Shown here: piece after piece, positions 18,222 through 32,485 of the stretch | Position numbering within the stretch: position 1 is the first letter of the stretch | Layout of the letters: every line of letters begins with the position of its first letter | Source of the DNA: Parcubacteria group bacterium | GTDB taxonomy: Bacteria > Patescibacteriota > Minisyncoccia > Moranbacterales > UBA2206 | DNA length: 64,000 nucleotides | Reading direction: 5' to 3' | Assembly (NCBI GenBank): GCA_041659505.1 | Contig: JBAZYF010000003.1 | Coordinates: 150,026-214,025, forward strand | The notes under the pieces: generated by a model | What the model was told of the DNA's origin: nothing | Databases searched by the model: none | What the model saw: only the letters and a program-made list of their open reading frames with translations | Position numbers and translations under genes: made by a program

Positions 18222-18884
18222 CTAGCTAAATAATTGCAACAACTCTTTCGTTTCCGGCAGTTTTGTGACAAGCATAAAAATAAAGATGTAGACCAAAAGC
18301 GTAACAACTTTCGAAGAAGAATAAAATTTGAGCGCGTTGCCCAATGATTGCTTGGGCAAAAGCGAATGACCATGCAGATTGACGGAAGAATAAATTTCAT
18401 CCAGCACCAAGTGCCCCAAATATCCCACGCTCACCGCGAGGCCTAAGAATAGTTTTTGCTCGCTTTGGATCGCCAAGAAATTCAAAAACCAGATCGTCAA
18501 AAGACCAAAAAGTACCGCAGCCGGAACGGAATGGAAGATGCCGCGATGATTGGTAAATTTTTCAAACACGTAGCCTGCGCCAAAACGGACCAGCAAAAAC
18601 ACTGCCATTGGGAACAGGACCAGCAGTTTCAATCCTCTTTCTCCGCTTTGATATTGACCCAAAAAAATTAAACCAGCCAGTCCCGCCCCCAAGAGGCCAA
18701 AAAGGATCTGAAATGGAACACCTTCATCCATATCCAGATCAGGAAGGAATGAACCGACCAGGACGGCCAAAAAAATCCAGATGATCGCCTCGGTCGATGC
18801 CATCAAGGAAGTGATAAGACCAGCAACGATAAAACCGATGCCGATAAAAACGCCGAAGCTGATGTGGGTTTTGAAATTTGCCAT
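18222..18884 (-). CDS. Membrane-bound metal-dependent hydrolase-like protein (DUF457/YdjM-like)
   Basis: Polytopic membrane protein with conserved His/Asp residues. The start is probably MANFKTHISFG at 18884; the track ORF extends to 18920 and would overlap the upstream gene. Confidence 0.5.
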   Translation of the reverse strand: MANFKTHISFGVFIGIGFIVAGLITSLMASTEAIIWIFLAVLVGSFLPDLDMDEGVPFQILFGLLGAGLAGLIFLGQYQSGERGLKLLVLFPMAVFLLVRFGAGYVFEKFTNHRGIFHSVPAAVLFGLLTIWFLNFLAIQSEQKLFLGLAVSVGYLGHLVLDEIYSSVNLHGHSLLPKQSLGNALKFYSSSKVVTLLVYIFIFMLVTKLPETKELLQLFS

Positions 18885-18889
18885 AGATT

Positions 18890-19183
18890 TTATTTTTCCT
18901 TCGGCCAGCCCCAATTCCACTTCGGCTTTTCGCCTTTCTTAAAAGCGATAGCGAAGAAGATGGCGGTCCATAAAATTACTAAGCCAAGAAACGCGTAAGG
19001 CACATCACTCTTGGGCGCCGTTGCATCGATTATCCTGGCGGAAGCGACGAGTAGTGCGACATAGATCGCAATCGTGACCCAGCCTTGCCACCTGACCGGC
19101 GTCCAGCCCCAGCCGAACCGTTTTTGCTTGAACCAGTACCCCTTAGGATTATCCTTCACGTACGCGATGTATCTTTCGAACAT
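18890..19183 (-). CDS. Small membrane protein with a Trp-rich N-terminus (GWGWTPVRWQGW)
   Basis: 97-aa ORF containing two TM helices. Confidence 0.45.
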   Translation of the reverse strand: MFERYIAYVKDNPKGYWFKQKRFGWGWTPVRWQGWVTIAIYVALLVASARIIDATAPKSDVPYAFLGLVILWTAIFFAIAFKKGEKPKWNWGWPKEK

Positions 19184-19244
19184 ATGTTTTAGTTTTAATA
19201 TTTAGTCAGTTAGTGCAAATTTTGCATTATGCCTTTTTTGCATA

Positions 19245-20075
19245 TTACTTTCCGGAACTACTTTCTAGTTTTTTCATACTTGCGCTTCCCTCGAGGGATC
19301 TCATCTGAGAAATCGCGCTTTCGTTCAATTTTAGCAAGCGACTTTTCTGTGATAATCCAGCACGAATGAACTCAGCGTTGAGGTTTTCTAAATTTGCCAA
19401 ACAAACTAGTTGCGTCACGGTGGAATAATCTCGTACATTTCCGACTAACTTAGGATTTTTATCTTTCCATTGCCTTGCCGTCATTCCGAAAAGTGCTACA
19501 TTCAAAACATCAGCTTCATTGGCATAAGTGATATCAGCAAGGTGTTTCGATAATTTTTGAGGTAAAACAATCTTTTCTTTGATCGCGTCTGTATGAATTT
19601 TGTAATTGATTTTTGTAAGCATCCGCTTAGCATCCCATCCCAAGGTCAATCTCTCGTTTTCTTCAAGCTTCAGCCGTTGAAATTCATTTATGAGGTAAAT
19701 CTTAAACTCCGGACTAATCCACATGCCAAATTCAAATGCGATATCCTTGTGAGCATACGTCCCTCCATACCTGCCAGCAGTCGCTTTTAGCCCGATCGCA
19801 TTAGTCTTTTCTACCCATTCTTTAACACTTATTTTATAGCTATTGAGCCCGGCCTGACTTTTAATTATGGCAAATTCGCCATAATTAAACCTTGGGTTAT
19901 TTATTTTTTCCCAAATGCCGAGAAATTCAACAGTATTTCTGTTCCGAAGCCAATCAGAAATAAAAAAATCTCCTTCCTTAGCTCTTAGCATATCTGTAAG
20001 GGAGATATAATCGTTATTTTCCTTAGAAATAATCGCTATGTCAATCCCCTGAACATTAATTTTTTTATTTTTCAT
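19245..20075 (-). CDS. KilA-N domain DNA-binding protein with a DinD/Bro-like C-terminus
   Basis: N-terminal KilA-N-like region (IDIAIISKENNDYISLTDMLRAKEG...) and a C-terminal part similar to E. coli DinD. Confidence 0.65.
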   Translation of the reverse strand: MKNKKINVQGIDIAIISKENNDYISLTDMLRAKEGDFFISDWLRNRNTVEFLGIWEKINNPRFNYGEFAIIKSQAGLNSYKISVKEWVEKTNAIGLKATAGRYGGTYAHKDIAFEFGMWISPEFKIYLINEFQRLKLEENERLTLGWDAKRMLTKINYKIHTDAIKEKIVLPQKLSKHLADITYANEADVLNVALFGMTARQWKDKNPKLVGNVRDYSTVTQLVCLANLENLNAEFIRAGLSQKSRLLKLNESAISQMRSLEGSASMKKLESSSGK

Positions 20076-20092
20076 ATTTTTTACTTCGTTTA

Positions 20093-20117
20093 TTATACTG
20101 ATATTATATCAGTATAA
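20093..20117. promoter_or_regulatory. Perfect palindromic operator TTATACTGATAT-t-ATATCAGTATAA overlapping an extended -10 (TGATATAAT)
   Basis: 12-bp arms that are exact reverse complements around a single centre nucleotide, with the core TACTG-N9-CAGTA. It lies 18-42 nt upstream of the KilA-N gene start. Confidence 0.55.
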
Positions 20118-20142
20118 TCATTCTTTGGCAAGTTTTTTGCAG

Positions 20143-21114
20143 CTATTTTTTCGCAATCAGATTTAAAATCAAAGCCACAACTTTCTCTCTGTCTTTAGGA
20201 TCACTGCTCGCAACCAAAATTGTGAGCGCAGTGAGGGCGGAAGGTGTCAATCTACTCACATCTAAGATGTTAGCTTGCCGCAAAAACCAGACAAAAGCAA
20301 ACGCCCCACTTCTTTTATTACCATCGATGAACGGATGATTTTTAACCATGAAATACAAAAGATAGGCCGCCTTTTCTTCGACCGTCCCGTAAAGTTCTTT
20401 TCCGCCAAAAGTCTGCATCACATTTCCGACAATTCCCGCGACCGTTCCTGCGCTCCTTTCTTGGCCAAAAATATCCGTCGCTTTTTTCTCACGAAGCAAT
20501 TCACTCCTTAGCATAGTCAAACTGTCCGCAACTTTTGTTGCTGTGAGTACCACTTTCTTTTTGGTCAGCTTCCCTTTCGGCAAAGCGTCCCGGTCATAGG
20601 CATCCAGAGAAAGCCAGGTGTCAGCAAAAAGCGTGACTAGGTCAATTGCATCGCCAGTATCGATGATTGTTTCACGCGGCAGCAGTTTTTTGATATCCTC
20701 CACCACGCCCAAAAACTGATCATAGTTTTTCTTGATCCGATTCTTGTTGATGGCAAAGCCATCGACGATGTAGCTCCGCAAGGTTTTGGTTGCCCACTTA
20801 CGGAATTCTATCGCTATCTTTGAATTAGTACGATAACCTACGCCCAAAGTAACATCCAGCGAATATAGCGTGATAGGCTTGTCAGAATTTGCATTATGCA
20901 TTTTTTGCATATTGCTTTTTTCCTCAATTTCACCGTCTTTAAATATATTCCTTATATGACGAGACACTACAGATTGGTCGACTCCAAAAAGACTAACGAT
21001 CTGTGCTTGAGACGCCCAGATTGTTTCATGTTTAAAATCACCCTTAAGTTCAATCGCTCCGGATTTAGCTTGATAGATTACTGCCCCTGTGTTTTTTTCT
21101 TTTTTTGTTACCAT
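20143..21114 (-). CDS. RhuM-family N-terminal domain fused to a Fic/Doc domain (HPFIDGNKR) protein
   Basis: The C-terminal motif HPFIDGNKRSGAFA matches the Fic/Doc catalytic motif, Doc-type with K. The N-terminal 200 aa resemble the RhuM virulence-protein family. Confidence 0.7.
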   Translation of the reverse strand: MVTKKEKNTGAVIYQAKSGAIELKGDFKHETIWASQAQIVSLFGVDQSVVSRHIRNIFKDGEIEEKSNMQKMHNANSDKPITLYSLDVTLGVGYRTNSKIAIEFRKWATKTLRSYIVDGFAINKNRIKKNYDQFLGVVEDIKKLLPRETIIDTGDAIDLVTLFADTWLSLDAYDRDALPKGKLTKKKVVLTATKVADSLTMLRSELLREKKATDIFGQERSAGTVAGIVGNVMQTFGGKELYGTVEEKAAYLLYFMVKNHPFIDGNKRSGAFAFVWFLRQANILDVSRLTPSALTALTILVASSDPKDREKVVALILNLIAKK

Positions 21115-21179
21115 AATATTTATTTTAATTTATTACAATGATATTATACCACTATAATAAATTCCCGGCAAGCGAGGGT

Positions 21180-21262
21180 GATTAGGCCAGCATAATCGCG
21201 AATTCCTCTTCCCCGTCCCACTGGGCGAATAGGGAGAGTAGTTTTGAGTTGTTCATTTTTTT
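21180..21262 (-). repeat. 83-bp direct repeat, copy A; encodes a truncated small ORF MNNSKLLSLFAQWDGEEEFAIMLA
   Basis: About 90% identical to 22594-22675. It lies 13 nt after the stop of the RelE-like gene. Confidence 0.7.
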
Positions 21263-21274
21263 TATTTTAGGTAA

Positions 21275-21637
21275 TTATTCGCAATGAGAGAAATTTTTTA
21301 AATAGTCCTTGAGTCTTTCCTGATTTTCATTCTCCTTATCGCCTTTGTAGTATATTTCAATAAATTCGATCAGCTCAATGGTTTGGGTTTTGAGATGATA
21401 AGCATAAATTACGCGGAAGAATTTCCCTTTGGTGGAGTCGCAATGCATCCGCACTTTATATATTTCCAATATATCATTTTTGTGAAGCAGATTCCAATGC
21501 TTGCTTCCATTGCCTTGAGGCGCTGCAACCAGATATAATTCTTTGAGCTGATAAAAATCCTTTCCCAGCGTACGATATTTCTTGGAAAGTTTTTTCAGCT
21601 CTTTGGCAAATTCGCTTGTTTCCTGGAAATTTATCAT
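21275..21637 (-). CDS. RelE/ParE-fold toxin (Panacea-associated toxin candidate)
   Basis: 120 aa with the C-terminal FRVIYAYHLKTQTIELIEFIEIYYKGDKEN pattern of the RelE/ParE superfamily. It starts 12 nt after the stop of the upstream HTH-Panacea gene. Confidence 0.55.
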   Translation of the reverse strand: MINFQETSEFAKELKKLSKKYRTLGKDFYQLKELYLVAAPQGNGSKHWNLLHKNDILEIYKVRMHCDSTKGKFFRVIYAYHLKTQTIELIEFIEIYYKGDKENENQERLKDYLKNFSHCE

Positions 21638-21648
21638 CCGGATTTTTC

Positions 21649-22443
21649 TTAGAGTTTATCGTATTCCCGCACCGACAGTTTTTCATCCCGATAGAATACG
21701 CCGTTATATTCAACTGGCTTTCCCATTTCGGCGGCCCGCCACGGCATATCCTCGTGAGAAAGATCGGAAAGCTCTTTGGCGGTTTTATCAGCTAATCGCC
21801 GAAGTTCCCAATCGATATGCTTGATTTCTTGAGCGGTGAGCGGTGTCAAATCAACTTGATAGTCGGGATTTAGGAAATATTTTTTCTGATCCCGGTCATA
21901 GAATTTCGACCTAACCTCTTCAATCTCATTTTTAGCTTTCATTTCTTCCACAATCTTGGCAAACATCACCGGAGTCGGGCCAAAATGATTTTTAATATAC
22001 ACCGCGCCCATCAATTGCTCTTCATATTTTTCATAATAATCGAAGTCGATGAAATAGAGTAACTTATAGATCGCAGTCATGCCGATATTCGGTTTTCCTC
22101 CAACCTTTTTCAAGATATAGGTCAAGACCGTTTTGAATTTTTTCTGATTCTTAACCGGCACGGAAATTCTGATCTCATTTTCATTTTTCTTTTCTTTTCT
22201 ATCCCCTTCCGCTTCCAAAACAACAGTTTTGTCTATCACGTCAGTGTCGGACAAAAATTCCACAAGCGTCATACCAAAAATTTCCGCCAGCAGTCCCGCT
22301 TCGGTCACGGTGATGTCCCGCTCGCCTTTTTCGATTTGCATGTACGTCGGACGGGAAAGGCTCAATTTTTTAGCTAGATAGTCTTGAGAATAACCCTGCT
22401 TCAAACGAAGCTTTTTGATTTTCTCATATAATTTTTTAGGCAT
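21649..22443 (-). CDS. XRE-family HTH fused to a Panacea (DUF4065, SocA-like) domain antitoxin (PanA-like)
   Basis: N-terminal HTH_XRE (LRLKQGYSQDYLAKKLSLSRPTYMQIEKGERDITV) and a C-terminal Panacea-like segment (IYKLLYFIDFDYYEKYEEQLMGAVYIKNHFGPTP). Confidence 0.65.
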   Translation of the reverse strand: MPKKLYEKIKKLRLKQGYSQDYLAKKLSLSRPTYMQIEKGERDITVTEAGLLAEIFGMTLVEFLSDTDVIDKTVVLEAEGDRKEKKNENEIRISVPVKNQKKFKTVLTYILKKVGGKPNIGMTAIYKLLYFIDFDYYEKYEEQLMGAVYIKNHFGPTPVMFAKIVEEMKAKNEIEEVRSKFYDRDQKKYFLNPDYQVDLTPLTAQEIKHIDWELRRLADKTAKELSDLSHEDMPWRAAEMGKPVEYNGVFYRDEKLSVREYDKL

Positions 22444-22493
22444 AGTTTTGATACTTTTTACTTATACCCAAATCTTACACCGCATAATATCTT

Positions 22494-22512
22494 TTGTCAA
22501 ATATTTTGACAA
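22494..22512. promoter_or_regulatory. Palindromic operator TTGTCAAA-TAT-TTTGACAA upstream of the HTH-Panacea gene
   Basis: Perfect 8-bp arms, 51-69 nt upstream of the 22443 start. The position fits autoregulation by the XRE HTH. Confidence 0.5.
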
Positions 22513-22593
22513 TAGCTATTGTGAGATTATTTGACATATCCCTATCACCCTATTTCACGATAAAAGCCTTGTACAAAATCAATTGCTCCGGCC

Positions 22594-22675
22594 GATTAGC
22601 CAGCATGATAGCGAATTCCTCTTCGCCGTCCCACTGGGCGAGGAGGGAGAGTAGTTTTGAGTGGTTCATTTTTTT
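22594..22675 (-). repeat. 83-bp direct repeat, copy B; contains small ORF 22550..22669 (MNHSKLLSLLAQWDGEEEFAIMLANRPEQLILYKAFIVK)
   Basis: About 90% identical to 21180-21262. It lies 15 nt after the stop of the Mrr-like gene. A degenerate third copy sits at about 24375-24405. Confidence 0.7.
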
Positions 22676-22689
22676 GTACGAAAAATTTA

Positions 22690-23415
22690 TTAGATGTTTT
22701 TTATATAATGACAATTTGGAAAATTGGAACAGCCATAAAAATTTTCTCCCGCATGAGAACCTTTGTGCGCAGTTTTCAAAACCAAGTGACCACCACACTT
22801 TGGACATTTTTCAGAAATGCTAGATCCAAAGACGGGACGATTAGAAATTGCTTTGTCCAATCCAGCCGTCTTCACATATTCCATCAATTTTTTTCCATCA
22901 ATCAATTCGATTGATTTTCCCACTGCGAAGTTTTCCGCTTCCAACGTGAAAACATTGGTCGTGATAAAAAAGGCCTTTGCGTCAGAAAGCTTGTCAACTA
23001 CAGCGCCATAGAAATCACGCATCGCTCCGACAGATACTTGCTGAGTGATGAATTTTTTGCATTGAATGTAGTGCTTCGCTCCCTCTTTTGTAGCGATCGC
23101 ATCAATTCCTCCGTCATTTGGCCTTCCAACTGCTTCAGTTGCATAACCTAATTTATCAAAAAGATGACAAATAAACTCTTCGAACTGAGTTGGGGTTAAG
23201 TTTTTTATCGCCTCCAGTGAATTTTTACTTTCAAAAAAGCTCCTCTTCTTTCGCTTCTTGTATAAAACATAAATAGCTATAGGCAAGAATAAAGCCACGA
23301 GTATAATAGAAACCCCTAAAGCTATATTTTTGAATAGCAATGGTAAGACCTTTATAAACACAACGAGTGCATATAGTACAAATACCATCTCGCCCATTGA
23401 TTGTTTTTTAGCCAT
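22690..23415 (-). CDS. Membrane-anchored Mrr-like restriction endonuclease domain protein with a C-terminal topoisomerase-type zinc ribbon
   Basis: Two N-terminal TM helices, an Mrr_cat-like PD-(D/E)xK segment (FEEFICHLFDKLGY...GGIDAIA...YIQCKK) and a C-terminal CPKCGG...CSNFPNCHY ribbon. The start is probably the ATG at 23415; the track start at 23430 is a TTG. Confidence 0.65.
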   Translation of the reverse strand: MAKKQSMGEMVFVLYALVVFIKVLPLLFKNIALGVSIILVALFLPIAIYVLYKKRKKRSFFESKNSLEAIKNLTPTQFEEFICHLFDKLGYATEAVGRPNDGGIDAIATKEGAKHYIQCKKFITQQVSVGAMRDFYGAVVDKLSDAKAFFITTNVFTLEAENFAVGKSIELIDGKKLMEYVKTAGLDKAISNRPVFGSSISEKCPKCGGHLVLKTAHKGSHAGENFYGCSNFPNCHYIKNI

Positions 23416-23430
23416 TTTTGTTTTATGCAA

Positions 23431-23450
23431 GTAATTAATTACGTAATTAA
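23431..23450. promoter_or_regulatory. AT-rich palindrome GTAATTAATTAC-GTAATTAA sharing the 15-mer GTAATTAATTACGTA with 28214-28228
   Basis: 12-bp perfect palindrome 16-30 nt upstream of the Mrr-like gene start. An identical 15-mer occurs upstream of the MazE-like operon. Confidence 0.45.
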
Positions 23451-23487
23451 ATTTTTTAGAATCACCAGTTGAATTAATTTGCCGTGT

Positions 23488-24309
23488 CTATAGTATAATT
23501 TCAATTTCATTCGCAATAGTAATGTTAATAACTCTAAGCTCCACATCACCAAATCTTTTTATTCTTTGCGCTATTTTAATAGCATCTTCTTTTGTAATGC
23601 TCTCCGAAACCAACACGATGAGAACTGGCAAATCTATCAATAAAAATCTAATTCTTTCAAGGGTCCTCCTTATATAGAATTCCCCAATAAAATCAGCCCT
23701 CTCTGATTTTACATACTTAATCTCAACAATTTTTGAAATTACATCGCTAACTGGAGAATCGTAAAGTATGCCATCTGTAATTAAATTACCTCGTTTTGTT
23801 TCTATTTTTATTTCAGGCTTAAAATAAGTGCCATATTCACTTGATAAAAACTCCAGCGCTCTGCTTTCTGCGATTTTAATTTTATTTCTCTCTTCCTGAA
23901 ATTGCTTTTTTCTATCTATTTTCTCAGCATCACATTTGATACTATCGACACTCTCATCTTCTTGTTTTTTGTCCATTTCTGATCGAGTAGCTGGCTCTGT
24001 TTTTAGGTTCTGGCCGATATGCTCACTTTTACTTCTAAAAATAATTGCTAATTTTTGCATAAACTCCTCGCTAGCAATAATAAGACCACCAATAAAAAGT
24101 GAAACACTAAACACCCATCCATTTTTTGATATAATTGCAACAACAAACACAGCTAGTCCGCCAATAATTTTTTGAAGGCTTTTTTCATTATCATCTCTAA
24201 AAAATAACAATTTTACAAAAGCCAAAATCATCAATAGCAAAAAGGTGTATGTTGATATTGCTTGTAGACATTCAAATTTTATTATAGTTACCATATTTTC
24301 ATTAAACAC
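23488..24309 (-). CDS. Hypothetical membrane protein (N-terminal TM helices, charged coiled coil, C-terminal globular domain)
   Basis: 273-aa ORF. No family recognised. Confidence 0.45.
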   Translation of the reverse strand: MFNENMVTIIKFECLQAISTYTFLLLMILAFVKLLFFRDDNEKSLQKIIGGLAVFVVAIISKNGWVFSVSLFIGGLIIASEEFMQKLAIIFRSKSEHIGQNLKTEPATRSEMDKKQEDESVDSIKCDAEKIDRKKQFQEERNKIKIAESRALEFLSSEYGTYFKPEIKIETKRGNLITDGILYDSPVSDVISKIVEIKYVKSERADFIGEFYIRRTLERIRFLLIDLPVLIVLVSESITKEDAIKIAQRIKRFGDVELRVINITIANEIEIIL

Positions 24310-24442
24310 AAAATCATTGTTATTCCCAGTGTCTCCTAATCACCTCTTTCGTTTTCTTCTCATAAATCCCACTCCTAAAAAAGAAAAGCTAGCCTTGGTT
24401 GGTTCATTTTTTTGTGTATGCAATTAATTGCAAAAAATGAGA

Positions 24443-24733
24443 TTATTTATTTAAAATTTTTTCCAAATATTCTATCTCGGCTTTAAGACATTTTTCCCTG
24501 TATGCAAATTCGTTTTGTTCTTTTGCTATTTCTCCTAAACGCATTGGCTTAAGAACAGGATCATTATGATCATTGTGTAATTTTTCCAAGCTTGCCTGTC
24601 TTCGTTTTAGGTCTTTTTCTGTGCCATATTTTTTTAGTTTTCTATTTTCGATATACTGATAAATATTAAAACAACCACTTAAAATAGTGACAACGCTTAT
24701 AATAATTGCGAGGTTATTTTTTAAAAATTCCAT
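24443..24733 (-). CDS. Small membrane-anchored coiled-coil protein
   Basis: 96 aa with one N-terminal TM helix followed by a charged helical region. It is the last gene of a tight six-gene operon. Confidence 0.4.
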   Translation of the reverse strand: MEFLKNNLAIIISVVTILSGCFNIYQYIENRKLKKYGTEKDLKRRQASLEKLHNDHNDPVLKPMRLGEIAKEQNEFAYREKCLKAEIEYLEKILNK

Positions 24734-24751
24734 ATTTTTTAATAAAAAAAA

Positions 24752-25234
24752 TTAACCAATGAATGAAACTCCTAAGATCAAATAAATTAAACCAAAAACC
24801 CAAGGAATCAGCAGCTCAATATGAGAAAATGGATAATATAATTTTTCTTTTTTCCCCTCCCCTAAAATCTTCCATTCATAATCATACAATGCCAATGGTA
24901 AATTTTGCTCTATTTCATGGATAACTTTAAATTTACCAGAGTTTAACTGTCTATAGGCTCTAAGTAAGAACCAAAAAATAACGCAAATAACCAACCCGAG
25001 TAATGCCAGAACCATTTTTATCCAATTAAGCTTTTCTATCAGCTTAAGTTGAAAAGACAACCCAAGCACAGATATAAGAACGGTGTTGATGGTTAAGAAG
25101 AAATTATTGGCATTCTGCCTTCTGTCACTAATTCTTTCGGCGCTTTCAACATACATTTTATATTGATCAAAATAATGAGCATAATAATTCTCCCCGTATT
25201 CTGGTGCAGACTTATTTAGAAGCTTTTTATCCAT
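24752..25234 (-). CDS. Multi-TM small protein, candidate membrane effector (SLATT-like, tentative)
   Basis: 160 aa with a 50-aa cytoplasmic N-terminus carrying the conserved-looking RISDRRQNANNFF stretch, then 2-3 TM helices. It starts 7 nt after the TIR-like gene. Confidence 0.4.
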   Translation of the reverse strand: MDKKLLNKSAPEYGENYYAHYFDQYKMYVESAERISDRRQNANNFFLTINTVLISVLGLSFQLKLIEKLNWIKMVLALLGLVICVIFWFLLRAYRQLNSGKFKVIHEIEQNLPLALYDYEWKILGEGKKEKLYYPFSHIELLIPWVFGLIYLILGVSFIG

Positions 25235-25241
25235 ACCCTTT

Positions 25242-25643
25242 TTAATATTTATTAACTAGATTTTTTACATTTTCCCATGTCCAATCATAGTACCCTACTA
25301 ATCCTTCTGGCCTAGGGCAACTCTTACCAGGAAAACCTTTCAACCCAACAACAGGAACACAGGACTCTCTCGCCATTGCTATTTCAGCTAGCACTCCATT
25401 GCAAGCATGCGTTCTTTCCCCAACCATAACAATAACCAGGTCACATCTCTTTATTTTAGACAAACATTTTTCTTTCCACTCACCTTGACTCCATGGCTCT
25501 TTCACAGACCAATCTTCCATATCAAATGGTGTGCCATTATTTTTACATTGACCGATAAGGGAATCCCTGAGAAATTGATCATTATCAAAATCAAAGCTAA
25601 TAAATACGCGCTTTTTTTGTTGGTAGTAATTTCTATAATCCAT
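25242..25643 (-). CDS. TIR-like domain protein (DUF1863/ThsB-like)
   Basis: 133 aa opening with RVFISFDFDNDQFLRDSLI, matching the TIR-like DUF1863 N-terminal strand-loop motif, plus a later CDLVIVMVGERT strand. Confidence 0.55.
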   Translation of the reverse strand: MDYRNYYQQKKRVFISFDFDNDQFLRDSLIGQCKNNGTPFDMEDWSVKEPWSQGEWKEKCLSKIKRCDLVIVMVGERTHACNGVLAEIAMARESCVPVVGLKGFPGKSCPRPEGLVGYYDWTWENVKNLVNKY

Positions 25644-25674
25644 ATCCTTTTATTATAAAAATTGAAATTAGTTA

Positions 25675-27531
25675 TTATTTAATTAAACTCTTAAAATATT
25701 CCTTTGTTTCTTTATCTGTAAAATATACATAGCAACCTTTCATGCCTCTAGTCATTAATGTTCTGTAAGTATTTTTGATTATTGACCTGATTTTTTCTTT
25801 CGCCAAAGCTTCATCTTTTTTGAGTAACGTCTTGTATCCTTTAATTGAAGCATCCGTTTTGGCTCTTTTCGATGGGTCAACCAAAACGACTCCGTCTCTT
25901 ACAATCAAATCATCTCCCACGATTACGCCAATATAATCAACCTCCAGGCCTTGGCAAGTATGAATACACCCGGCTTCATTTACAGAATTTTTCGCAATGA
26001 TCCAAAGATTTCCGTCAGAACCAAGATTCCATTGCATCTTAAAGTCATACTCTGGAATGTTAATATCATATAACTTTGAATTTCTTCTGCTAATCCAATC
26101 CCAACAATACCCTGCAACAATTCTAGCTTTGTTGTTTGCTTTATTTTTCTCAACTATGACTTTGCGTAGCTCCTCAGGAGAATCCATGACCTTAAAATCA
26201 AAATCGTCGTCATCCAGAATAACATTTGCCGTTTCTCTGACTTGCAAAGCATTATCTAGCCACGAGAGATATCCGTCCGAACCATTACAACGAAATTGCG
26301 AGCTAAGATCGCTTTCAAAAACATTCGCTCCTAATTTTTTGGCCCATTTTTTAATCTCGTCTTTCTCTCCAATATCATCAAAATGGATCTTTTGATTTTC
26401 ATCAATAAAAAATACTGAGAATTTTGAAGCATTAATTATCTCCTTAATTTGATTTTCTCCCATATTCTTGAACATTCCAGATTTGCTATTGAGGCGATGG
26501 GCTTCATCAACAATTAAAGCTCCAAAGATATTTTTCTTCGCATTATAAAATGATCCTGATCCAGAAAATAGATTTGATATTTCTGTTTTTTTCAAAGTTC
26601 CTACTAATTTACTTTCGTAAACAGTTCTTGGCGCAGAATTTTTTGAGACATACTGAGCAAATAGGCCATTCTTAATAAGCTCGACCATGAGATTTATTGC
26701 TACAACCGACTTTCCCGTTCCTGGACCACCTTCGACGATAAAGACATTCTTGCTTTGATCTGTAGATTTAAGAGCTAAATATTTTGCCTTTTCAAATACA
26801 ACTTTTTGGTCGTCTACCATTACAAATTCACTGTTTCCCAAAAGCATTAGAGATAAGCTGTCTGCCAAGCATTTTGATGGCTTTATTATTCCACTTTCAA
26901 TCTGAAACATTACCTTGCCCTTATCTCCATATTTTACAAATTTCTTGATAAACTCTCTCAGTTTTAATGTCTCTTTCCTCAAAAAAACAGGCGCTCTTTT
27001 TATATGCTCAGCATAAAACTCATTCCTAATTGCCCCATCGTCTATGTAATTATGTAAATATGCACATGGCATTAATGTTATTTCCTCCTTGGTAATAGCT
27101 TCGTTAAAATTATCTAAAAGTGCTGCATATGACCAGGCTTGGTATGCAGGGTGGCTAACTTCGCGCATTCCTCCGCCGACGAATGTTGAAATTATTCCAT
27201 CCATTTCGGTAATTTCCGCTTTTTCCCATTGCTTCAACTCTACAATCACTGCGTGATCTTTTCTGTCATTATTTTGACCAGTTAAAATAAAATCCACTCG
27301 CTTTGATGTTTGTGGAATCTGGTATTCTATCATGACGCCGCAATCACTTGGAATATCCTCGTCTTGAAGAATATTTTCCATGTACATCATAGAATTCTTC
27401 CAGGCATTCATTTCGCTAATTGTGGTTTTTCTTTTTAGCTTTTTCTGAAAAATATCATATATCGCAACTTCGATATTGTTAGTGACAACATCCTGAGAAA
27501 AACCTTGCTTTGTGGATTGATAAACAATCAT
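25675..27531 (-). CDS. DUF2075-family Schlafen-like ATPase (N-terminal PD-(D/E)xK-like region plus P-loop NTPase/helicase-like domain)
   Basis: 618 aa with Walker A GGPGTGKS, Walker B LIVDEAH, and an N-terminal D...ELKQWE nuclease-like motif. The architecture is typical of defence-island DUF2075 proteins. Confidence 0.6.
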   Translation of the reverse strand: MIVYQSTKQGFSQDVVTNNIEVAIYDIFQKKLKRKTTISEMNAWKNSMMYMENILQDEDIPSDCGVMIEYQIPQTSKRVDFILTGQNNDRKDHAVIVELKQWEKAEITEMDGIISTFVGGGMREVSHPAYQAWSYAALLDNFNEAITKEEITLMPCAYLHNYIDDGAIRNEFYAEHIKRAPVFLRKETLKLREFIKKFVKYGDKGKVMFQIESGIIKPSKCLADSLSLMLLGNSEFVMVDDQKVVFEKAKYLALKSTDQSKNVFIVEGGPGTGKSVVAINLMVELIKNGLFAQYVSKNSAPRTVYESKLVGTLKKTEISNLFSGSGSFYNAKKNIFGALIVDEAHRLNSKSGMFKNMGENQIKEIINASKFSVFFIDENQKIHFDDIGEKDEIKKWAKKLGANVFESDLSSQFRCNGSDGYLSWLDNALQVRETANVILDDDDFDFKVMDSPEELRKVIVEKNKANNKARIVAGYCWDWISRRNSKLYDINIPEYDFKMQWNLGSDGNLWIIAKNSVNEAGCIHTCQGLEVDYIGVIVGDDLIVRDGVVLVDPSKRAKTDASIKGYKTLLKKDEALAKEKIRSIIKNTYRTLMTRGMKGCYVYFTDKETKEYFKSLIK

Positions 27532-27534
27532 AAT

Positions 27535-27882
27535 CTAGAGTTTATTGTATTTAGTATGCCTGCCTTTGGCCTTTTCGATTGGATATTTTTCTTCGTTTTT
27601 TGTTTGCTTTTTGTCCAGCGCTTTCAAAACATCTATTTCTAAATCATGACTCATTAGTAAAACCCAATATAAAACATCGGCCAATTCCTCGCCGATTTCT
27701 TCTTTCGCCTTTTTTGCATACTTCTTCATTTCACTTTCATTCTTCCATTGAAAATGCTCCATTACCTCTGCTGCTTCCAAAACCAAAGACAAGGCTAAAT
27801 CTTTTGGATTATGAAATTGCTTCCAATCTCGCGCGTCACGAGAAGCGATTATTCGTTTTGTCAGATCATCTACTTTTGACAT
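27535..27882 (-). CDS. MazG-like nucleotide pyrophosphohydrolase
   Basis: 115 aa with the all-alpha NTP-PPase signature (LALSLVLEAAEVMEHFQW...EELADVLYWVLLMSHDLEIDV...EKYP). Confidence 0.7.
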   Translation of the reverse strand: MSKVDDLTKRIIASRDARDWKQFHNPKDLALSLVLEAAEVMEHFQWKNESEMKKYAKKAKEEIGEELADVLYWVLLMSHDLEIDVLKALDKKQTKNEEKYPIEKAKGRHTKYNKL

Positions 27883-27885
27883 AAT

Positions 27886-28062
27886 TTACTTTTTCCAATC
27901 CTCAATAATTAATTTACTCCCCGATTTTTTGACTATCACTTTTTGTTTCTCCCGCCAACCGAGTGCGCGGAATAATTCGATGGGGATGGTGACGGCGATG
28001 GATTGCTTGCCGACCTTGGTCAGCTTGCGGATATTTTTGTCTTCCATTTTTCTGACTGGCAT
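27886..28062 (-). CDS. AbrB/MazE/SpoVT-family swapped-hairpin DNA-binding protein (MazE-like antitoxin)
   Basis: Unlisted 58-aa ORF: MPVRKMEDKNIRKLTKVGKQSIAVTIPIELFRALGWREKQKVIVKKSGSKLIIEDWKK. It ends 3 nt before the MazG-like start. Confidence 0.6.
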   Translation of the reverse strand: MPVRKMEDKNIRKLTKVGKQSIAVTIPIELFRALGWREKQKVIVKKSGSKLIIEDWKK

Positions 28063-28209
28063 ATATTTGTAGGTAAATTATTTAACCATACGGATTTGCG
28101 CTTCTTAATAAGCTCCTACACTGGATTCTCTGCCTACGCCGAGGCTTCGGCAGGCAGGCCGCCGGAGTTTATGCTTGTGAAGCGGGTGCGGGAATGAATG
28201 ACACGGGGT

Positions 28210-28229
28210 GTACGTAATTAATTACGTAC
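28210..28229. promoter_or_regulatory. Perfect 20-bp palindrome GTACGTAATTAATTACGTAC
   Basis: Exact reverse-complement symmetry, about 150 nt upstream of the MazE-like operon. It shares a 15-mer with the site at 23431-23445. Confidence 0.5.
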
Positions 28230-28233
28230 CACT

Positions 28234-28353
28234 TTAGGCTGCCGCAAACTCTCCCAACTCCTCAAAAACCCCATCGGTGAAATCGGTTGGTTTGAATTTT
28301 AAAATTGCCAGCGCGTTTTTGCGGCAATATTCGAGTTCGGAAAAATTTTTCAT
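28234..28353 (-). pseudogene. Duplicated 3'-end fragment of the HD-domain gene found at 31976..32485
   Basis: About 90% nucleotide identity over roughly 90 nt with 31988-32076. It encodes MKNFSELEYCRKNALAILKFKPTDFTDGVFEELGEFAAA, matching the C-terminus ...LDYCRKNALAIFKFKPTDFTDGVFEELGGFLIG. Confidence 0.7.
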
Positions 28354-28492
28354 TTTTCTAAAAATAAAGTTTTAAACTATTTTAATACCCAAAAAATCCT
28401 ATCGCCCCTGATATCCAGCCTGTCACTTTATCATTTTACGCCTTTTTGGCTTTTTAGGCTAATTCTAGCAGCTGAAACTCATTGGTCAGCTC

Positions 28493-29926
28493 TTACATTA
28501 AAAAATAATAATCCAATGGCACATTTACAATTTTTTCTTCCTGATCAATGACTAAGGGACTACTAGAAAATACGATTCCGTAATCAGAATTAATCCGACT
28601 CATGCTATGCAAAATTTGCTTCCTATCTTTTTTCCCCAGCCCCACTTCAATCATAATCTGCTTCTTATTGCCAATTTGCAAAATAAAGTCAGCTCCGCTT
28701 TGAGCGCTATCATAACGGAATGCTCCCCCGCCTCGAAGGATAAACTCTCGATACAGATGGGCCCCGACAGAATCTTCTAGTAGCTTTCCCTTTCTGGTCA
28801 TAAAAGTACCTTCTTGCCCGGAAATAGAGAGAAAAGACATCCGAATCGCTGAAGACATAAATAAATATTTCGCTGGTTTTTTTGCGACTGACATATTGGA
28901 TCCATAAGCTGAAACCTTCACAAGCAATTCCGCCTTTTCCAGTGCGTCTAATAGACCGAGCACTGTCAAACGATCAATCTGTAATATTTTTTCTAAAGTA
29001 TTCAGGCTTGTCGTATCATTTTCTGCAAGAATAAAAAGCAGCCGCTTGGCTTGCGTTAGCGTTTTTATGTCGAAACTACCCATCATCGGCAAGTCTTTTT
29101 TTATAATCCCATCCAAAAGCAATGATATTGCATCATAAATTGCCGATTCGTTTGGCAATTGCAAAGTGAATGGCAATGAACCTGACGTCAGAAATCTATC
29201 AACATCTCGCCTATCCACCTTACTCCAATATTCATTCACCGATCTTTGCAAATTACCCAACTTAGCATAAACTTCCCTAGCATCAGCTGAAAAGTATATC
29301 GCCTCTCTGATATTGTTTTTTAATTGCTTTGTTGGATAAACCTTATTTCCAACCATCTCAAATTCCGCAAAACACATCGGGGTCATTCGTTCAAAAATAG
29401 CCCGACCCCTTGAGATATCCGGAGTAGTTTGCAGAACGACTGCCGAAGATCCTGTGCAACAAAAAAATATCCTTGCTGTCTTATCGTGCAAGATCTTAAG
29501 TGTTTTTGCCCACTTGGGATCACTCTGTACTTCATCGAAAAAAATAACAACATCTTCCTGTAGGCTTTCAAGATCAACCTTCAGGATTTCTTCATAAGCT
29601 TGCATTATCTCAGAAATACCTACATTAAATAAATTCCTCGCTTCATCGATGGATAAAAATAATATTCTAAGTTTTTTTCTTTTGAGAATAATATCATTAC
29701 AAATCTGTGCCATTAGGGTTGTTTTTCCGACGCCGCGAAGCCCAGGGATTATAATCAACCTATTGTTTGATTTTTTAGCTAAAAAATCAAACAGATATTT
29801 CTGTATTTTTACAAATAAAAAACGACTAGGGAGCTGCTCCCCTTTTATATCATGCGTATATTTATGGATTCTATCCTCTGTTGTTCTTATTTGCTTTTGC
29901 AAATATTGGATTAGCTCCTGCTGCAT
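28493..29926 (-). CDS. AAA-family ATPase with a C-terminal DUF4143 domain
   Basis: Walker A GLRGVGKTTL and Walker B VIFFDEVQ; 477 aa. Confidence 0.7.
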   Translation of the reverse strand: MQQELIQYLQKQIRTTEDRIHKYTHDIKGEQLPSRFLFVKIQKYLFDFLAKKSNNRLIIIPGLRGVGKTTLMAQICNDIILKRKKLRILFLSIDEARNLFNVGISEIMQAYEEILKVDLESLQEDVVIFFDEVQSDPKWAKTLKILHDKTARIFFCCTGSSAVVLQTTPDISRGRAIFERMTPMCFAEFEMVGNKVYPTKQLKNNIREAIYFSADAREVYAKLGNLQRSVNEYWSKVDRRDVDRFLTSGSLPFTLQLPNESAIYDAISLLLDGIIKKDLPMMGSFDIKTLTQAKRLLFILAENDTTSLNTLEKILQIDRLTVLGLLDALEKAELLVKVSAYGSNMSVAKKPAKYLFMSSAIRMSFLSISGQEGTFMTRKGKLLEDSVGAHLYREFILRGGGAFRYDSAQSGADFILQIGNKKQIMIEVGLGKKDRKQILHSMSRINSDYGIVFSSSPLVIDQEEKIVNVPLDYYFLM

Positions 29927-29937
29927 ATATATTAAAC

Positions 29938-29983
29938 TATACTAGTAAGTTATGTTACTAGTATATTATATTAGACTAGTAAT
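29938..29983. promoter_or_regulatory. Operator-like inverted repeat ATACTAGTAA-gttatg-TTACTAGTAT plus a third half-site ACTAGTAATG
   Basis: 10-bp perfect arms at 29938-29947 and 29954-29963, immediately upstream of the AAA ATPase start. Confidence 0.45.
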
Positions 29984-30057
29984 GTCAAACAGTGTTTTTT
30001 TGGCTTAAATATAGTGTTTTTATCCTAATTCTCTTGTTGGATATCTCCTATTCAACC

Positions 30058-30729
30058 CTAGACGAGCTGTTTTTCTTTTAAGCTTGCATAGGCACTTTTT
30101 GTGATTATCACATGATCCAACACCTCAATCCCTAAAATCTTCCCCGCCTCCTTGAGGCGCTTGGTCACTTCCAAGTCATCTTCCGACGGTTCGGCGTTAC
30201 CGGAAGGATGATTGTGCGCGAGAATAACTGACGCCGCCAACTGATCAATGGCCGACTTGAAAACTTCGCGCGGATGAATGAGGCTGGCGTTGAGCGTGCC
30301 GATGGAAACGGTTTCTTTGTGAATCAGTTGACTGCGCGCGTTGAGATAGAGCGCGACAAAATGTTCTTTTTTCATGGTGCGCAATTCTTGCAATTGCGCC
30401 ACGACATCTTTGGCGGAAATAATCATCGGAAGGTTGTTGTCCTCCACTTCCAAGGCGCGCTTGGTCAACTCAAATGCCGCTAAAAAAAGACACGCCTTTG
30501 CCGGACCGATACCTTTAATTTTTGATAGACTTTTATAATCAAGTTCTAATAGTTTTTTCTTGGGAAATTTAGCCAGTATTCCACTGGAAATCTTCAAAAC
30601 ATTTTTGCCTTTTATCCCCGTTCGTAGTAAAATCGCCATCAACTCACTATCGCGAAGATTTTCCACTCCTCTTTCCCGCAACTTCTCTCTTGGCATTTCA
30701 TGTTTTGGCAAGTCTTTGATTTTTGGCAT
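30058..30729 (-). CDS. radC: RadC-family JAB/MPN domain protein
   Basis: JAMM motif HNHPSG, a helix-hairpin-helix region, and 223 aa from the MPKIKDL start. Confidence 0.8.
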   Translation of the reverse strand: MPKIKDLPKHEMPREKLRERGVENLRDSELMAILLRTGIKGKNVLKISSGILAKFPKKKLLELDYKSLSKIKGIGPAKACLFLAAFELTKRALEVEDNNLPMIISAKDVVAQLQELRTMKKEHFVALYLNARSQLIHKETVSIGTLNASLIHPREVFKSAIDQLAASVILAHNHPSGNAEPSEDDLEVTKRLKEAGKILGIEVLDHVIITKSAYASLKEKQLV

Positions 30730-30922
30730 AATTACTTTTTCCAAATATAATTACTCTTTCAAAAACCCCATCGGTAATTCAATCCTACTCCAATTCCCCT
30801 CTTTCGTAAAGAAAAGTTCGCCAAAACAGGCGCATTTTTTATTAAGCTCGAAAAATGGCCAGAACGAAATTGCTTGGGAAAAATTTGCCCATGATCAGCA
30901 TTTCCAAAAATCACACCTCAAG

Positions 30923-31942
30923 CTATAGATTATCCCGGAAAAATTGGATCGTCCTTCGCCAAGCCAAGGAGGAGTTCTGACCGATATTATGGTCGTCTCC
31001 CTGATATTCCACATACTCAACCTTTTTTCCCACTTTCTCCAACTCATCCCGCAAGCGCCGCGAAAGCTCGATCGGCACGCTTTTATCGCCGGTGGCGTGC
31101 TGAAGCTGGATCGGTGAAGAGATATCATTGAGATAGGCATAGGGATCGATCCGGTTCCAAAATTGCGGATTTTGACTGGGCAGGCCATACTCCTCGACCA
31201 GCGGATTGGAACCGCGCAGGAAGGAAATTTTTGCATTATACGTCTCTAGCTCATCAACAAAACTGCCCACCACTCCCGCCCAGAGGGAATAGGCTTTGAT
31301 ATCTTGGGAAATGACCGCGACGCGCAGACCAATTTCTCCCCCGTTGGAATGCCCCCAATAACCGATCTTTCCGGGATCAACATCCGGATATTTTTTGAGA
31401 TAAGCGATGGCCTCAAGCGTGTCGATGGTATATTTTTCGGAAAAATGCGCTCCGGTCGCAACACCCTCGGATTGGCCGTGTCCCCGCAGGTCCGGTTTGA
31501 ACGTGACAAACCCGGCTCTCGCGAGCACTGCCTGATAGCCCTGATAGTTTCCGGTTGTCGAATATTGCTTCGGCGCGATGTACCCATGCACAAAGACGAT
31601 CGCCGGAAAACCCTGCTCCGGCCTTTTCGCGAGAGGAATAGTCAAAAGTCCAAAGATTTTTAAGCCTTCTGAGCGATAGGAAACGATGGATTGTTTGTAG
31701 TTCGATCCGTTCGGCAGAGTTTTTTCCAACACAAATTCTCCGCCTGGATATGTTTGTTTTCTCAACGATTCGATCGCCATCGGAAAATCCGCTTCGCTTT
31801 GGGGCTCGACTTGCGAAACTGGCACATTTTCTTCAACTTTTGGATTCTCGACCGGCGCAGCTTTCTTCGGTCTATCGAAAGCCAAAAATAGCGCCAGTCC
31901 GCTTACGATCACCAAAAAAATGATCGCCGTGGTTTTTTTCAT
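30923..31942 (-). CDS. Secreted alpha/beta hydrolase (dienelactone hydrolase / S9 peptidase-like)
   Basis: N-terminal TM/signal segment, GxSxG nucleophile elbow (GHSNGG), 339 aa. Confidence 0.65.
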   Translation of the reverse strand: MKKTTAIIFLVIVSGLALFLAFDRPKKAAPVENPKVEENVPVSQVEPQSEADFPMAIESLRKQTYPGGEFVLEKTLPNGSNYKQSIVSYRSEGLKIFGLLTIPLAKRPEQGFPAIVFVHGYIAPKQYSTTGNYQGYQAVLARAGFVTFKPDLRGHGQSEGVATGAHFSEKYTIDTLEAIAYLKKYPDVDPGKIGYWGHSNGGEIGLRVAVISQDIKAYSLWAGVVGSFVDELETYNAKISFLRGSNPLVEEYGLPSQNPQFWNRIDPYAYLNDISSPIQLQHATGDKSVPIELSRRLRDELEKVGKKVEYVEYQGDDHNIGQNSSLAWRRTIQFFRDNL

Positions 31943-31975
31943 ATTCTTGCATCAAATATATTACCTCCCCCGCTA

Positions 31976-32485
31976 TTAGCCTATCAAGAACCCTCCCAAC
32001 TCCTCAAAAACCCCATCAGTGAAATCGGTTGGTTTGAATTTGAAAATCGCCAGCGCGTTTTTGCGGCAATAGTCGAGCTCTGGTAGATTATTAGTCTTAG
32101 TGTAATGTTTGAAACTATCAAGCGTGTCCGCCGCGCGGATGATCAGTGCATCACGTCCGGCCTCGGCCGCGCGCTTGGCCAAATCTTCAATGCGCTGGTC
32201 TGAATTTTCAATCGAACGATCCTTGGTGTTGGCGCGCACTAATTGCAAGACGGTTTCCCCGAACTCGGATCGTATGAGCTCCTCGGTAATACCGCTCCAT
32301 TCTAGCGCATCGTGCAGAAGTCCAGTAAGTACTGCATCACGGGAATAGTCATTTTCATAGAGATAGACTCCCACGCGGATAACATGAAACAAGATCGGTT
32401 TTCTTGATCCTTCTTGCGATACTGGAAAATGCGCGACAAGCATCCGCAAGGCCTTTTCAAATTCGATATCGATTAGTTCTGGCAT
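31976..32485 (-). CDS. HD-domain phosphohydrolase
   Basis: HD motif (ILFHVIRVG...LLHDALEW); 169 aa. Its 3' end is duplicated at 28234-28353 and in part at 30766-30790. Confidence 0.65.
   Translation of the reverse strand: MPELIDIEFEKALRMLVAHFPVSQEGSRKPILFHVIRVGVYLYENDYSRDAVLTGLLHDALEWSGITEELIRSEFGETVLQLVRANTKDRSIENSDQRIEDLAKRAAEAGRDALIIRAADTLDSFKHYTKTNNLPELDYCRKNALAIFKFKPTDFTDGVFEELGGFLIG

Follow-up and report, generated by a model that had tools for sequence, protein, structure and literature searches.

What kind of locus is formed by the long run of minus-strand genes that begins at position 19245 of the 64-kb stretch of DNA analysed here (the window)? The stretch is part of a 216-kb metagenome contig from ENA, and homologues of the flanking DUF4349 protein assign its host to Candidatus Moraniibacteriota, uncultured and ultra-small bacteria of the Candidate Phyla Radiation (CPR). 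According to the list of open reading frames (ORFs) of the window, minus-strand ORFs follow one another without a break from 19245 to 32485. The first-pass annotation had described the part up to 29926 as a defence island with several toxin-type modules that had probably arrived on one or more integrative elements, and had placed RadC just beyond it. All minus-strand ORFs that it named were present, and nearly all of its domain calls held in Pfam and PADLOC profile searches, which were used for all domain assignments reported below. Comparison with related loci showed, however, that the variable interval extends from about 19223 to 31975 (about 12.7 kb), so that RadC and an S9 hydrolase are located inside it. 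The interval is bounded by the gene of an intact HD_4 phosphohydrolase (31976-32485, Pfam HD_4) at its high-coordinate end and by a gene for a 97-amino-acid (97-aa) protein with two transmembrane (TM) segments (18890-19183) at its low-coordinate end; these two anchors and all features of the interval lie on the minus strand. With a probability of roughly 80%, the interval is a chromosomal defence hotspot composed of at least eight independent co-directional modules, and neither a single system nor a single mobile element.

Counted from the high-coordinate end, these modules are an S9 hydrolase; RadC with a DUF4143 ATPase (PDC-S01); a MazG-like protein with an Nhi-like DUF2075 protein; a TIR protein with the membrane protein 8xMP, perhaps together with a 96-aa TM protein; the membrane protein TM273 with a TM-Mrr-Zn-ribbon protein (both candidates for a restriction-endonuclease fold); PanA with a toxin resembling the RelE superfamily; a RhuM-Doc fusion (PDC-S23); and a KilA-N protein (PDC-S22). 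At least seven genes within the 12.7 kb gave PADLOC or Pfam matches, i.e. unrelated defence-type genes are clustered. Three PADLOC candidate models were matched, together with PanAT, Mrr, Nhi-like and ThsB-type TIR families, and the cargo of relatives differs, all of which agrees with the earlier suggestion of a defence island. The GC content of 19245-28233 is 0.365, compared with 0.436 in the remaining window. It varies from gene to gene across the region between 0.28 and 0.50, with minima of 0.28-0.33 in the genes for the 96-aa protein, TM273 and 8xMP. Two samples gave the same gene arrangement in independent assemblies (L017; L018 together with L002), and in three further samples the contigs ended within the KilA-N gene.

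Comparator loci (L019-L024) were obtained by a metagenome scan with the HD_4 protein, and their HD_4 proteins are 84-91% identical to that of the window. The cargo downstream of HD_4 differed in every related locus examined, while the anchors were kept, and consisted mostly of restriction-modification (R-M) systems. In L020, HD_4 is followed by a Fic gene, AbrB and a Dam-like methyltransferase, and in L021 by three other genes, AbrB and a methyltransferase cluster. L022 carries a DinD/Bro-like gene, MazG, two other DUF2075 proteins, ParA and a PIF1-like helicase at this site. The order in L024 is Bro-N, AbrB, a restriction endonuclease (REase)-like gene, Dcm methyltransferase, a HATPase-like gene, NIF3, DUF3800, TspO, the 97-aa gene and DUF4349. 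It is a 73% identical copy of the 97-aa gene that closes the variable region in L024, and homology between L024 and the window restarts at about 19222, right after the stop codon of the KilA-N gene. A 36-nucleotide (nt) remnant at this low-side edge (19216-19251) resembles the RhuM stretch coding for NMQKMHNANS, being 89% identical to 20883-20918. No repeat marks the low-side (19.2-kb) end of the region. The comparison with relatives that the first-pass annotation had proposed yielded both boundaries of the variable interval.

Since different cargo lies between the same flanking genes in relatives, the interval is a variable defence hotspot and not part of the core genome. A conserved core of the lineage, with the island being merely an impression created by annotation, would have some basis in the conservation of HD_4, AbrB, the 97-aa gene and DUF4349 in relatives. 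Such an explanation is, however, next to negligible: the loci with 84-91% identical HD_4 hold different genes between the anchors in every case, the GC content is depressed and the contigs of other samples break inside the region. One internal gene does behave as an anchor. Because copies of the AbrB/MazE-like gene (27886-28062; 58 aa, Pfam MazE_antitoxin 3e-6) that are 80-84% identical precede unrelated cargo in L020, L021 and L024, this gene is, judging by sequence conservation, a conserved internal anchor and not cargo. It is possibly a regulator. In L019 (8964-9240), the C-terminus of AbrB is altered and a remnant of the usual C-terminus (VVKKSGSKLIIKDWKK) is found just before MazG, a small 3'-end duplication/insertion of the HD_4 kind. 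Also, a gene for a Bro-N protein, which resembles phage-type anti-repressors, is located in the window at 34272-35126 (minus strand), 1.8 kb beyond HD_4. It lies directly upstream of HD_4 in L022 (9-854) and L023 (289-1143) and directly downstream in L024 (4008-4856), indicating that the surroundings of HD_4 have been rearranged on both sides.

Direct repeats of the HD_4 3' end were found within the interval. The HD-gene fragment mentioned in the first-pass annotation was confirmed. It is a 39-aa ORF (28234-28353) that repeats the C-terminal end of the intact HD_4 protein and coincides with the second copy (28234-28350) of a 117-nt direct repeat, the other copy of which (31976-32092) is the 3' end of the intact HD_4 gene. 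Both copies are 85% identical, and about 95% identical in their core. They bracket only 28351-31975, a segment of about 3.7 kb. Its first gene encodes the S9/alpha-beta hydrolase (30923-31942; Pfam Peptidase_S9 and related families, GC 0.50), followed by RadC (30058-30744; UPF0758_N and RadC JAB domain, Pfam 1e-44) and by the ATPase (28493-29926), for which the earlier DUF4143 call was borne out by Pfam AAA_14 and DUF4143 and by a PADLOC PDC-S01 match of 4e-31. In L019 the hydrolase-RadC-DUF4143 segment is absent, and HD_4 is directly followed by AbrB and MazG. The DNA after the HD_4 fragment of the window is homologous to the DNA after the intact HD_4 gene of L019, and the fragment is therefore regarded as the displaced original 3' end of HD_4. 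As read from the sequence, the 3.7-kb segment is an insertion that brought its own replacement HD_4 3' end. A third copy of the HD_4 3' core, ACCGATGGGGTTTTTGA (17 nt, 30759-30775), lies between the hydrolase and RadC genes, next to a 33-nt terminator/promoter-like motif (30782-30814); three copies of this core occur in the window, compared with 0.01 expected. The third copy and the motif (together 30759-30814) may mark the scar where one insertion adjoins a later one.

Repeats of the HD_4 3' end were likewise observed in L022 (74 nt, 82% identical, spacing 1573 nt) and L020 (53 nt, 89% identical, spacing 1338 nt), in both cases with other cargo. The repeats of the window, L022 and L020 have the core TTCACCGATGGGGTTTTTGAGGAGTTG in common and each brackets different DNA; the insertion point was narrowed to a core of 25-30 nt. 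A hairpin combined with the motif TTTACG-N17-TAGGAT, i.e. a terminator plus a promoter-like sequence, was found at the cargo junctions of five related loci with 87-92% identity over about 40 nt. It adjoins AbrB, MazG or RadC genes in L020 (about 2470-2526), L021 (about 12950-13007), L022 (about 3110-3164), L024 (about 5200-5254) and the window (30782-30814), where it occurs only once in 64 kb. Intergenic regions contained no Rfam family and no significant tandem array.

Site-specific integration into the 3' end of a gene classically leaves direct repeats of that end, and KilA-N, RhuM, RadC and toxin-antitoxin (TA) genes are common in phages and in integrative and conjugative elements (ICEs). 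Together with the low GC content, these features could be taken to mean that all of the interval derives from one integrative element, be it a genomic island, an ICE or a prophage, which entered the HD_4 3' end in a single event and has since decayed, losing its integrase. Such an origin appears very unlikely. The repeats bracket 3.7 kb only and leave the other 9 kb outside, AbrB and in part MazG are conserved inside the region in relatives while their neighbours differ, and the genes are heterogeneous in GC content (0.28-0.50). No structural-gene, replication or conjugation domains were found in the region with Pfam or PADLOC, and megablast gave no DNA match of the region among 50,697 phage or 72,556 plasmid records. 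The earlier observation that no integrase is visible extends to the entire 64-kb window, which contains neither an integrase, transposase or recombinase gene nor a tRNA gene. Arrival on integrative elements, as first proposed, is supported only in part: there are insertion scars at the hydrolase-RadC-DUF4143 segment and a pair of 77-nt repeats around PanAT, but no recombinase, and the remainder of the region resembles cassette replacement more than a single mobile element.

The first-pass annotation had also grouped six genes into one operon. The genes for AbrB, MazG, the DUF2075 protein, TIR, 8xMP and the 96-aa protein are indeed co-directional and tightly spaced, with gaps of 3, 3, 31, 7 and 18 nt. 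They do not constitute one system, because TIR-8xMP and MazG-DUF2075 recur independently of each other and AbrB is an anchor; at least three independent units have to be distinguished. The first pair consists of a MazG-like nucleotide pyrophosphohydrolase (27535-27882; Pfam MazG-like 4e-17) and, after the 3-nt gap, an Nhi-like protein of 618 aa (25675-27531) with a superfamily 1 helicase of the DUF2075/SLFN-g3 type (Pfam PF09848 6e-106) and a partial match to PADLOC Nhi/AbiO (5e-10). The N-terminus of the latter shows a nuclease-type motif (E69..D80..E98-x-K100) and aligns with a 657-aa protein of L022; no Pfam, PADLOC or PDB profile matched it. Nhi (S. epidermidis SERP2475) and Nhi-like proteins are single-gene defence systems with an N-terminal nuclease and DUF2075, which protect against phage. 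The window protein shares the DUF2075 superfamily 1 helicase with them and has a putative nuclease motif of the PD-(D/E)xK type in front of it, but differs in lacking full-length similarity to the Nhi model. It also differs in the MazG-like gene that is fixed directly upstream in this lineage, on plasmids of several phyla and in a haloarchaeon, and that is not part of the description of Nhi.

Plasmids from Bacteroidota, Gammaproteobacteria, Bacillota, a methanogen and a haloarchaeon encode full-length homologues of the 618-aa protein (40-56% identity). In L019, L022 and on Marivirga, Halalkalicoccus and Priestia plasmids, the DUF2075 homologue is immediately preceded by a MazG-type gene; in Halomonas and in a relative of B. 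cereus such a gene is found nearby. No MazG gene was present beside the homologues of Hymenobacter, Methanosphaera and Streptomyces. The pair thus recurs without TIR-8xMP in Bacteroidota, Bacillota, Gammaproteobacteria and on a haloarchaeal plasmid. In L019, a 96% identical MazG precedes a non-orthologous GIY-YIG-DUF2075 protein, as in L022, indicating a breakpoint exactly at the MazG/DUF2075 junction and a like-for-like swap. No description of a pairing of MazG with a nuclease-DUF2075 protein was found in the literature. DUF2075 genes often occur as tandem divergent paralogues, e.g. in L022 (3465-7576), L046 (3501-7487) and L047 (3501-7230). The tandem of L022 consists of a GIY-YIG-DUF2075 protein with a C-terminal S24/LexA-like region and a PD-(D/E)xK-DUF2075 protein, and the Hymenobacter and Marivirga plasmids carry two DUF2075 copies each.

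The second pair consists of a small ThsB-type TIR protein (25242-25643; Pfam ThsB_TIR 3e-6) with an invariant Glu87 in the helix motif GV.AEI (alignment A3) and the three-TM protein 8xMP (24752-25234; Pfam PF24838 1e-43), which has three hydrophobic segments and starts 7 nt after the TIR gene. The AlphaFold2 (AF2) model of the TIR protein (pLDDT 77.5) best matched the B. cereus TIR protein 8fz9 (E 2.5e-7, TM-score 0.72) among PDB entries, followed by ThsB and the SARM1 TIR domain. In total, 652 homologues of 8xMP with 62-84% identity were found. Six further metagenomic contexts were found to have a small ThsB_TIR gene, or two of them in the case of L041, directly upstream of 8xMP on the same strand. 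MazG and DUF2075 were absent from all six, and five of the pairs stand directly behind R-M genes. These are of different kinds, namely type IIG Eco57I/MmeI with SNF2-PLD, type I M and S genes, and a C-protein with an N6_N4 methyltransferase and a REase. Distant plasmid homologues of 8xMP (33-46% identity) in Synechococcus, Haematospirillum and Polaromonas have a TIR gene directly upstream, and the Polaromonas pair follows hsdR. On a Leptolyngbya plasmid, the 449-aa protein upstream of 8xMP contains a TIR motif; a Streptomyces plasmid was the sole case with no TIR gene upstream. A TIR gene therefore precedes 8xMP in 11 of 12 contexts, with two TIR subfamilies being involved, and the identities of the two proteins co-vary across loci. 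No 8xMP was detected in IMG/VR contigs, and the only match in the phage collection was the Haematospirillum plasmid record. Presumably, 8xMP is the membrane effector of the TIR protein. Across the same loci, 8xMP is much more conserved (65-84% identity) than TIR (43-83%; alignments A2 and A3), which suggests that the effector is under tighter constraint than the sensor or signal generator. The third gene, encoding a 96-aa protein with one TM segment and a charged helix (24443-24733, GC 0.28), was considered as a conserved member of this unit and rejected, as it is absent from all other TIR-8xMP loci and has no homologues in the loci examined.

The surroundings of TIR-8xMP also bear on another explanation, in which the interval is a sink for selfish addiction genes (TA, Doc, R-M-like nucleases, TIR with a pore) that maintain themselves through post-segregational killing and add little to the defence against phage. 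PanAT and Doc belong to the classical addiction modules, the distant TIR-8xMP pairs lie on plasmids beside parA, HicAB and RelE genes, and the defence role of every module is a prediction. However, TIR-8xMP stands directly after R-M genes in 6 of the 11 other contexts, the window TIR shares 52% identity with a TIR assigned to type IV Thoeris, proteins of the Nhi type confer protection from phage and R-M systems dominate the cargo of relatives. Addiction and defence are, moreover, compatible, and a locus serving addiction with little defence is considered unlikely.

The TIR-8xMP pair is best called a candidate Thoeris-like variant on the basis of its sequence. A preprint of December 2025 (Yirmiya et al., bioRxiv 10.64898/2025.12.03.692087) catalogues 29 putative types of Thoeris, of which types V-XI were validated. 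In type V, the ThsF/DUF2270 effector has three TM helices and forms a ring-shaped homo-oligomer, type VII uses a SLATT protein (same preprint), and the effector of type II is Macro-TM. Like these systems, the window has a two-gene operon of a small ThsB-type TIR with a conserved Glu and a small multi-TM protein. It differs from them in that 8xMP (PF24838) lies outside the described effector families (SIR2-SLOG, Macro-TM, caspase-like, DUF2270, DUF6650, SLATT and others), lacks a recognisable ligand-binding domain and is, together with its TIR, habitually appended to R-M or Nhi-like operons. No Pfam match of 8xMP to DUF2270, SLATT or Macro was obtained at E <= 0.01, and PADLOC matches to PycTM/SLATT were weak (E 3e-4 to 2e-3). 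No sequence match in the PDB and no relevant literature on 8xMP/PF24838 were found. TIR-8xMP is possibly the putative '3TM' class included in Table S1 of the preprint, since the TIRs paired with 8xMP in L035 and L055 resemble '3TM'-class TIRs in a comparison of the TIR sequences. By composition, not by sequence, the TIR, the three-TM 8xMP and the one-TM 96-aa protein also recall Rst_2TM_1TM_TIR, a system of the E. coli P2/P4 hotspot with three genes for a 2-TM, a 1-TM and a TIR protein. The 96-aa gene is, however, absent from all other TIR-8xMP loci.

Further modules lie towards the low-coordinate end. TM273 (23488-24309; 273 aa), previously called a TM coiled-coil protein, begins with three TM helices, which a charged linker joins to a C-terminal domain; the earlier description has to be corrected in that the protein carries a conserved PD-(D/E)xK-type motif. 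In the alignment of the family, which comprises 182 matching representative clusters, the three TM helices are conserved, the charged linker varies and the residues E148, D179-G180 and E196-x-K198 of the C-terminal domain are near-invariant. It may be a membrane-anchored family with a restriction-endonuclease fold. No Pfam, PADLOC or PDB profile matched it. The neighbouring TM-Mrr nuclease (22690-23430) has an N-terminal TM segment, Mrr_cat (PF04471, 1e-25) and a C-terminal Zn_ribbon_Top1 (3e-13), in accordance with the first-pass call of a membrane Mrr-like REase with a Zn ribbon. It is 61% identical to a 240-aa protein encoded two genes after TIR-8xMP in L033. With the type IV restriction enzyme Mrr it shares the catalytic domain; it differs in having a TM segment in place of the N-terminal winged-helix Mrr_N and a zinc ribbon at the C-terminus.

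The next module is a PanA-type antitoxin (21649-22443) with HTH_3 and SocA_Panacea (PF13274, 2.9e-16), followed 11 nt downstream by a candidate toxin (PanT) of 120 aa (21275-21637). The call of a helix-turn-helix (HTH)-Panacea protein held, whereas that of a RelE-like partner found only weak fold and profile matches. The 120-aa protein has 553 homologues, and its AF2 model (pLDDT 83.9) shows a beta-alpha-alpha-beta4-alpha topology. Its top Foldseek matches were TA toxins, all weak (7vd7_A with E 0.04, 6af4_A and YafQ 4q2u_B; E 0.04-0.4, TM-score 0.46-0.56), and the HigB-2 profile matched weakly (E about 0.45). In JGI, homologues are labelled RelE or YafQ. Searches of Pfam, NCBIfam and PDB sequences gave no match for the protein, and none of 30 homologues matched Pfam; membership in the RelE/ParE superfamily is plausible from the predicted fold. 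Upstream of PanA (22472-22536) there are two overlapping promoter-like sites and a 25-nt palindromic repeat present twice, likely an autoregulated operator to judge from its sequence. The pair is bracketed by 77-nt direct repeats with 92% identity, copy A (22599-22675) containing the start of a 39-aa ORF and copy B (21186-21262) a truncated 24-aa copy of this small ORF. Neither TM273 nor the 39-aa ORF has homologues in the comparison loci. Published PanAT systems are antitoxin-first pairs of a Panacea-domain antitoxin and RNase toxins (PMC8832971). The window pair agrees with them in its HTH-Panacea antitoxin in first position, its small partner 11 nt downstream and its palindromic operator-like site, and differs in a toxin family that has no Pfam model and weak likeness to RelE/HigB-2, and in the flanking 77-nt repeats.

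The two last cargo genes were correctly recognised in the first pass as a RhuM-Fic/Doc fusion and a KilA-N/DinD-like protein. In the Doc subtype of Fic proteins, K replaces the second G (HxFx[DN][AG]NKR). The fusion (20143-21114) combines RhuM (3e-17) with a Doc-type Fic domain (PF02661, 1.4e-11), and its motif HPFIDGNKR is of the Doc type; TIGR01550 DOC_P1 matched with 1.4e-7, below the cutoff of that model. The KilA-N protein is encoded at 19245-20075 (Pfam 1e-25). Full-length matches to PADLOC candidates were obtained for KilA-N (PDC-S22, 1.5e-128), the RhuM-Doc fusion (PDC-S23, 4e-100) and the DUF4143 ATPase (PDC-S01, 4e-31). These three are phage defence candidates (PDC) that were found by guilt-by-embedding in BREX, DISARM or type I R-M systems (bioRxiv 10.1101/2024.01.29.577857). 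In contrast to the published candidates, the window genes are not embedded in such systems and stand alone in the hotspot.

By analogy with the known systems, the defence hotspot might operate as follows. Like Nhi, the nuclease-helicase would attack the nucleic acid of phages. The TIR protein would turn NAD+ into an ADP-ribose-derived signal, which would open an oligomeric membrane pore of 8xMP and lead to abortive infection, as in Thoeris II, V and VII, and the PanAT pair and the Doc fusion would arrest translation. The locus itself would have been assembled by at least one, and probably two, insertions at one point in the HD_4 3' end, by a like-for-like swap of the gene after MazG, by insertion of the PanAT pair between the 77-nt repeats and, in the remainder, by replacement of cassettes between conserved anchor genes. 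Since no recombinase was found within 64 kb, exchange is proposed to have relied either on homologous recombination by the host, through insertion of a circle by a single crossover or through anchor-to-anchor replacement after DNA uptake, or on a recombinase provided in trans.

Several points weigh against a defence hotspot assembled in this manner. PDC-S01, PDC-S22 and PDC-S23 are candidates only, and KilA-N, RhuM, RadC and TA genes are likewise carried by mobile elements in which a defence role has not been proven. The S9 hydrolase has a host-like GC content (0.50) and no link to defence. For the DUF2075 N-terminus and for TM273, the nuclease motifs were read from alignments, with no match to a family or structure, and the recombination route is purely conjectural. 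No genome of the same species with an empty site was found, the nearest comparators differing by 9-16% in HD_4. Species-level genomes with a DUF4349 protein (48-69% identity) showed no synteny around it and had none of the neighbouring genes of the window, guaA and IMPDH included. With respect to MazG-DUF2075, the adjacency observed among Moraniibacteriota loci is not phylogenetically independent, and in L008 MazG is followed by an R-M system instead. The latter locus prompted the idea that MazG is a mere flanking housekeeping gene, which is less likely given the MazG-DUF2075 pairs on unrelated plasmids.

The concept of defence islands reportedly goes back to Makarova et al. in 2011 and to later hotspot surveys of the E. 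coli pan-genome. Many chromosomal defence hotspots have no recombinase of their own. The window region resembles such loci in its clustering of unrelated defence and TA genes, its variable content between fixed flanks and its low GC content. It differs in its CPR/Patescibacteria host, in an AbrB-like gene and often MazG conserved inside, and in having been hit repeatedly at the 3' end of one protein gene, with duplications of 53-117 nt and no integrase within 64 kb. A more speculative proposal, which is somewhat doubtful, regards the locus as an integrase-free cassette platform. Its conserved head (HD_4 3' end, AbrB-like regulator and terminator/promoter motif) would capture defence cargo at one short site, and it would carry the MazG-DUF2075 pair as well as TIR-8xMP, the latter placed behind R-M or Nhi-like nucleases and perhaps serving as their back-up or guard. 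The TIR-8xMP pore may then kill the cell when the DNA-targeting first line fails, and MazG would help the nuclease, for instance if it eliminated modified dNTPs of the phage or a nucleotide used for signalling. The fixed head (AbrB and the terminator/promoter-like motif) with interchangeable defence cargo is reminiscent of integrons, but the locus has no integrase or attC-type sites and its cassettes contain several genes, so that the likeness is one of resemblance only.

Some features outside the interval were also recorded. Between the 97-aa gene and DUF4349 lies a gene for a YdjM-family membrane protein (18222-18920, minus strand) that is missing in L024, where about 200 nt take its place. 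This adds a second, small difference in gene content right next to the island. An NAD-related cluster (43286-50768 and 56941-57609, minus strand) encodes NAD synthase, PRPP synthetase, NAD kinase, a QRPTase_N protein and a regulator of the NUDIX/NrtR type, and is worth mentioning in a genome that encodes an NAD-consuming TIR module. At 56000-64000 the GC content falls again (0.31-0.41). This part contains a gene for a DUF2326 protein (62964-63806), which runs off the end of the window, and may be another acquired or defence-type region.

Defence islands and hotspots are a well-known kind of locus, and the island itself is in this respect ordinary. Separating the six-gene operon into independent units prevents a false call of a new six-gene system, and at the same time provides genomic support for two candidate pairs, both of them small, namely TIR with 8xMP and MazG with the nuclease-DUF2075 protein. 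TM273 is brought to attention as a membrane-anchored family with a PD-(D/E)xK motif outside the Pfam and PADLOC models. An insertion point mapped to a core of 25-30 nt with no recombinase nearby is a concrete case for how hotspots are refilled, and the locus indicates that a streamlined CPR genome keeps a dedicated defence locus with fast turnover.

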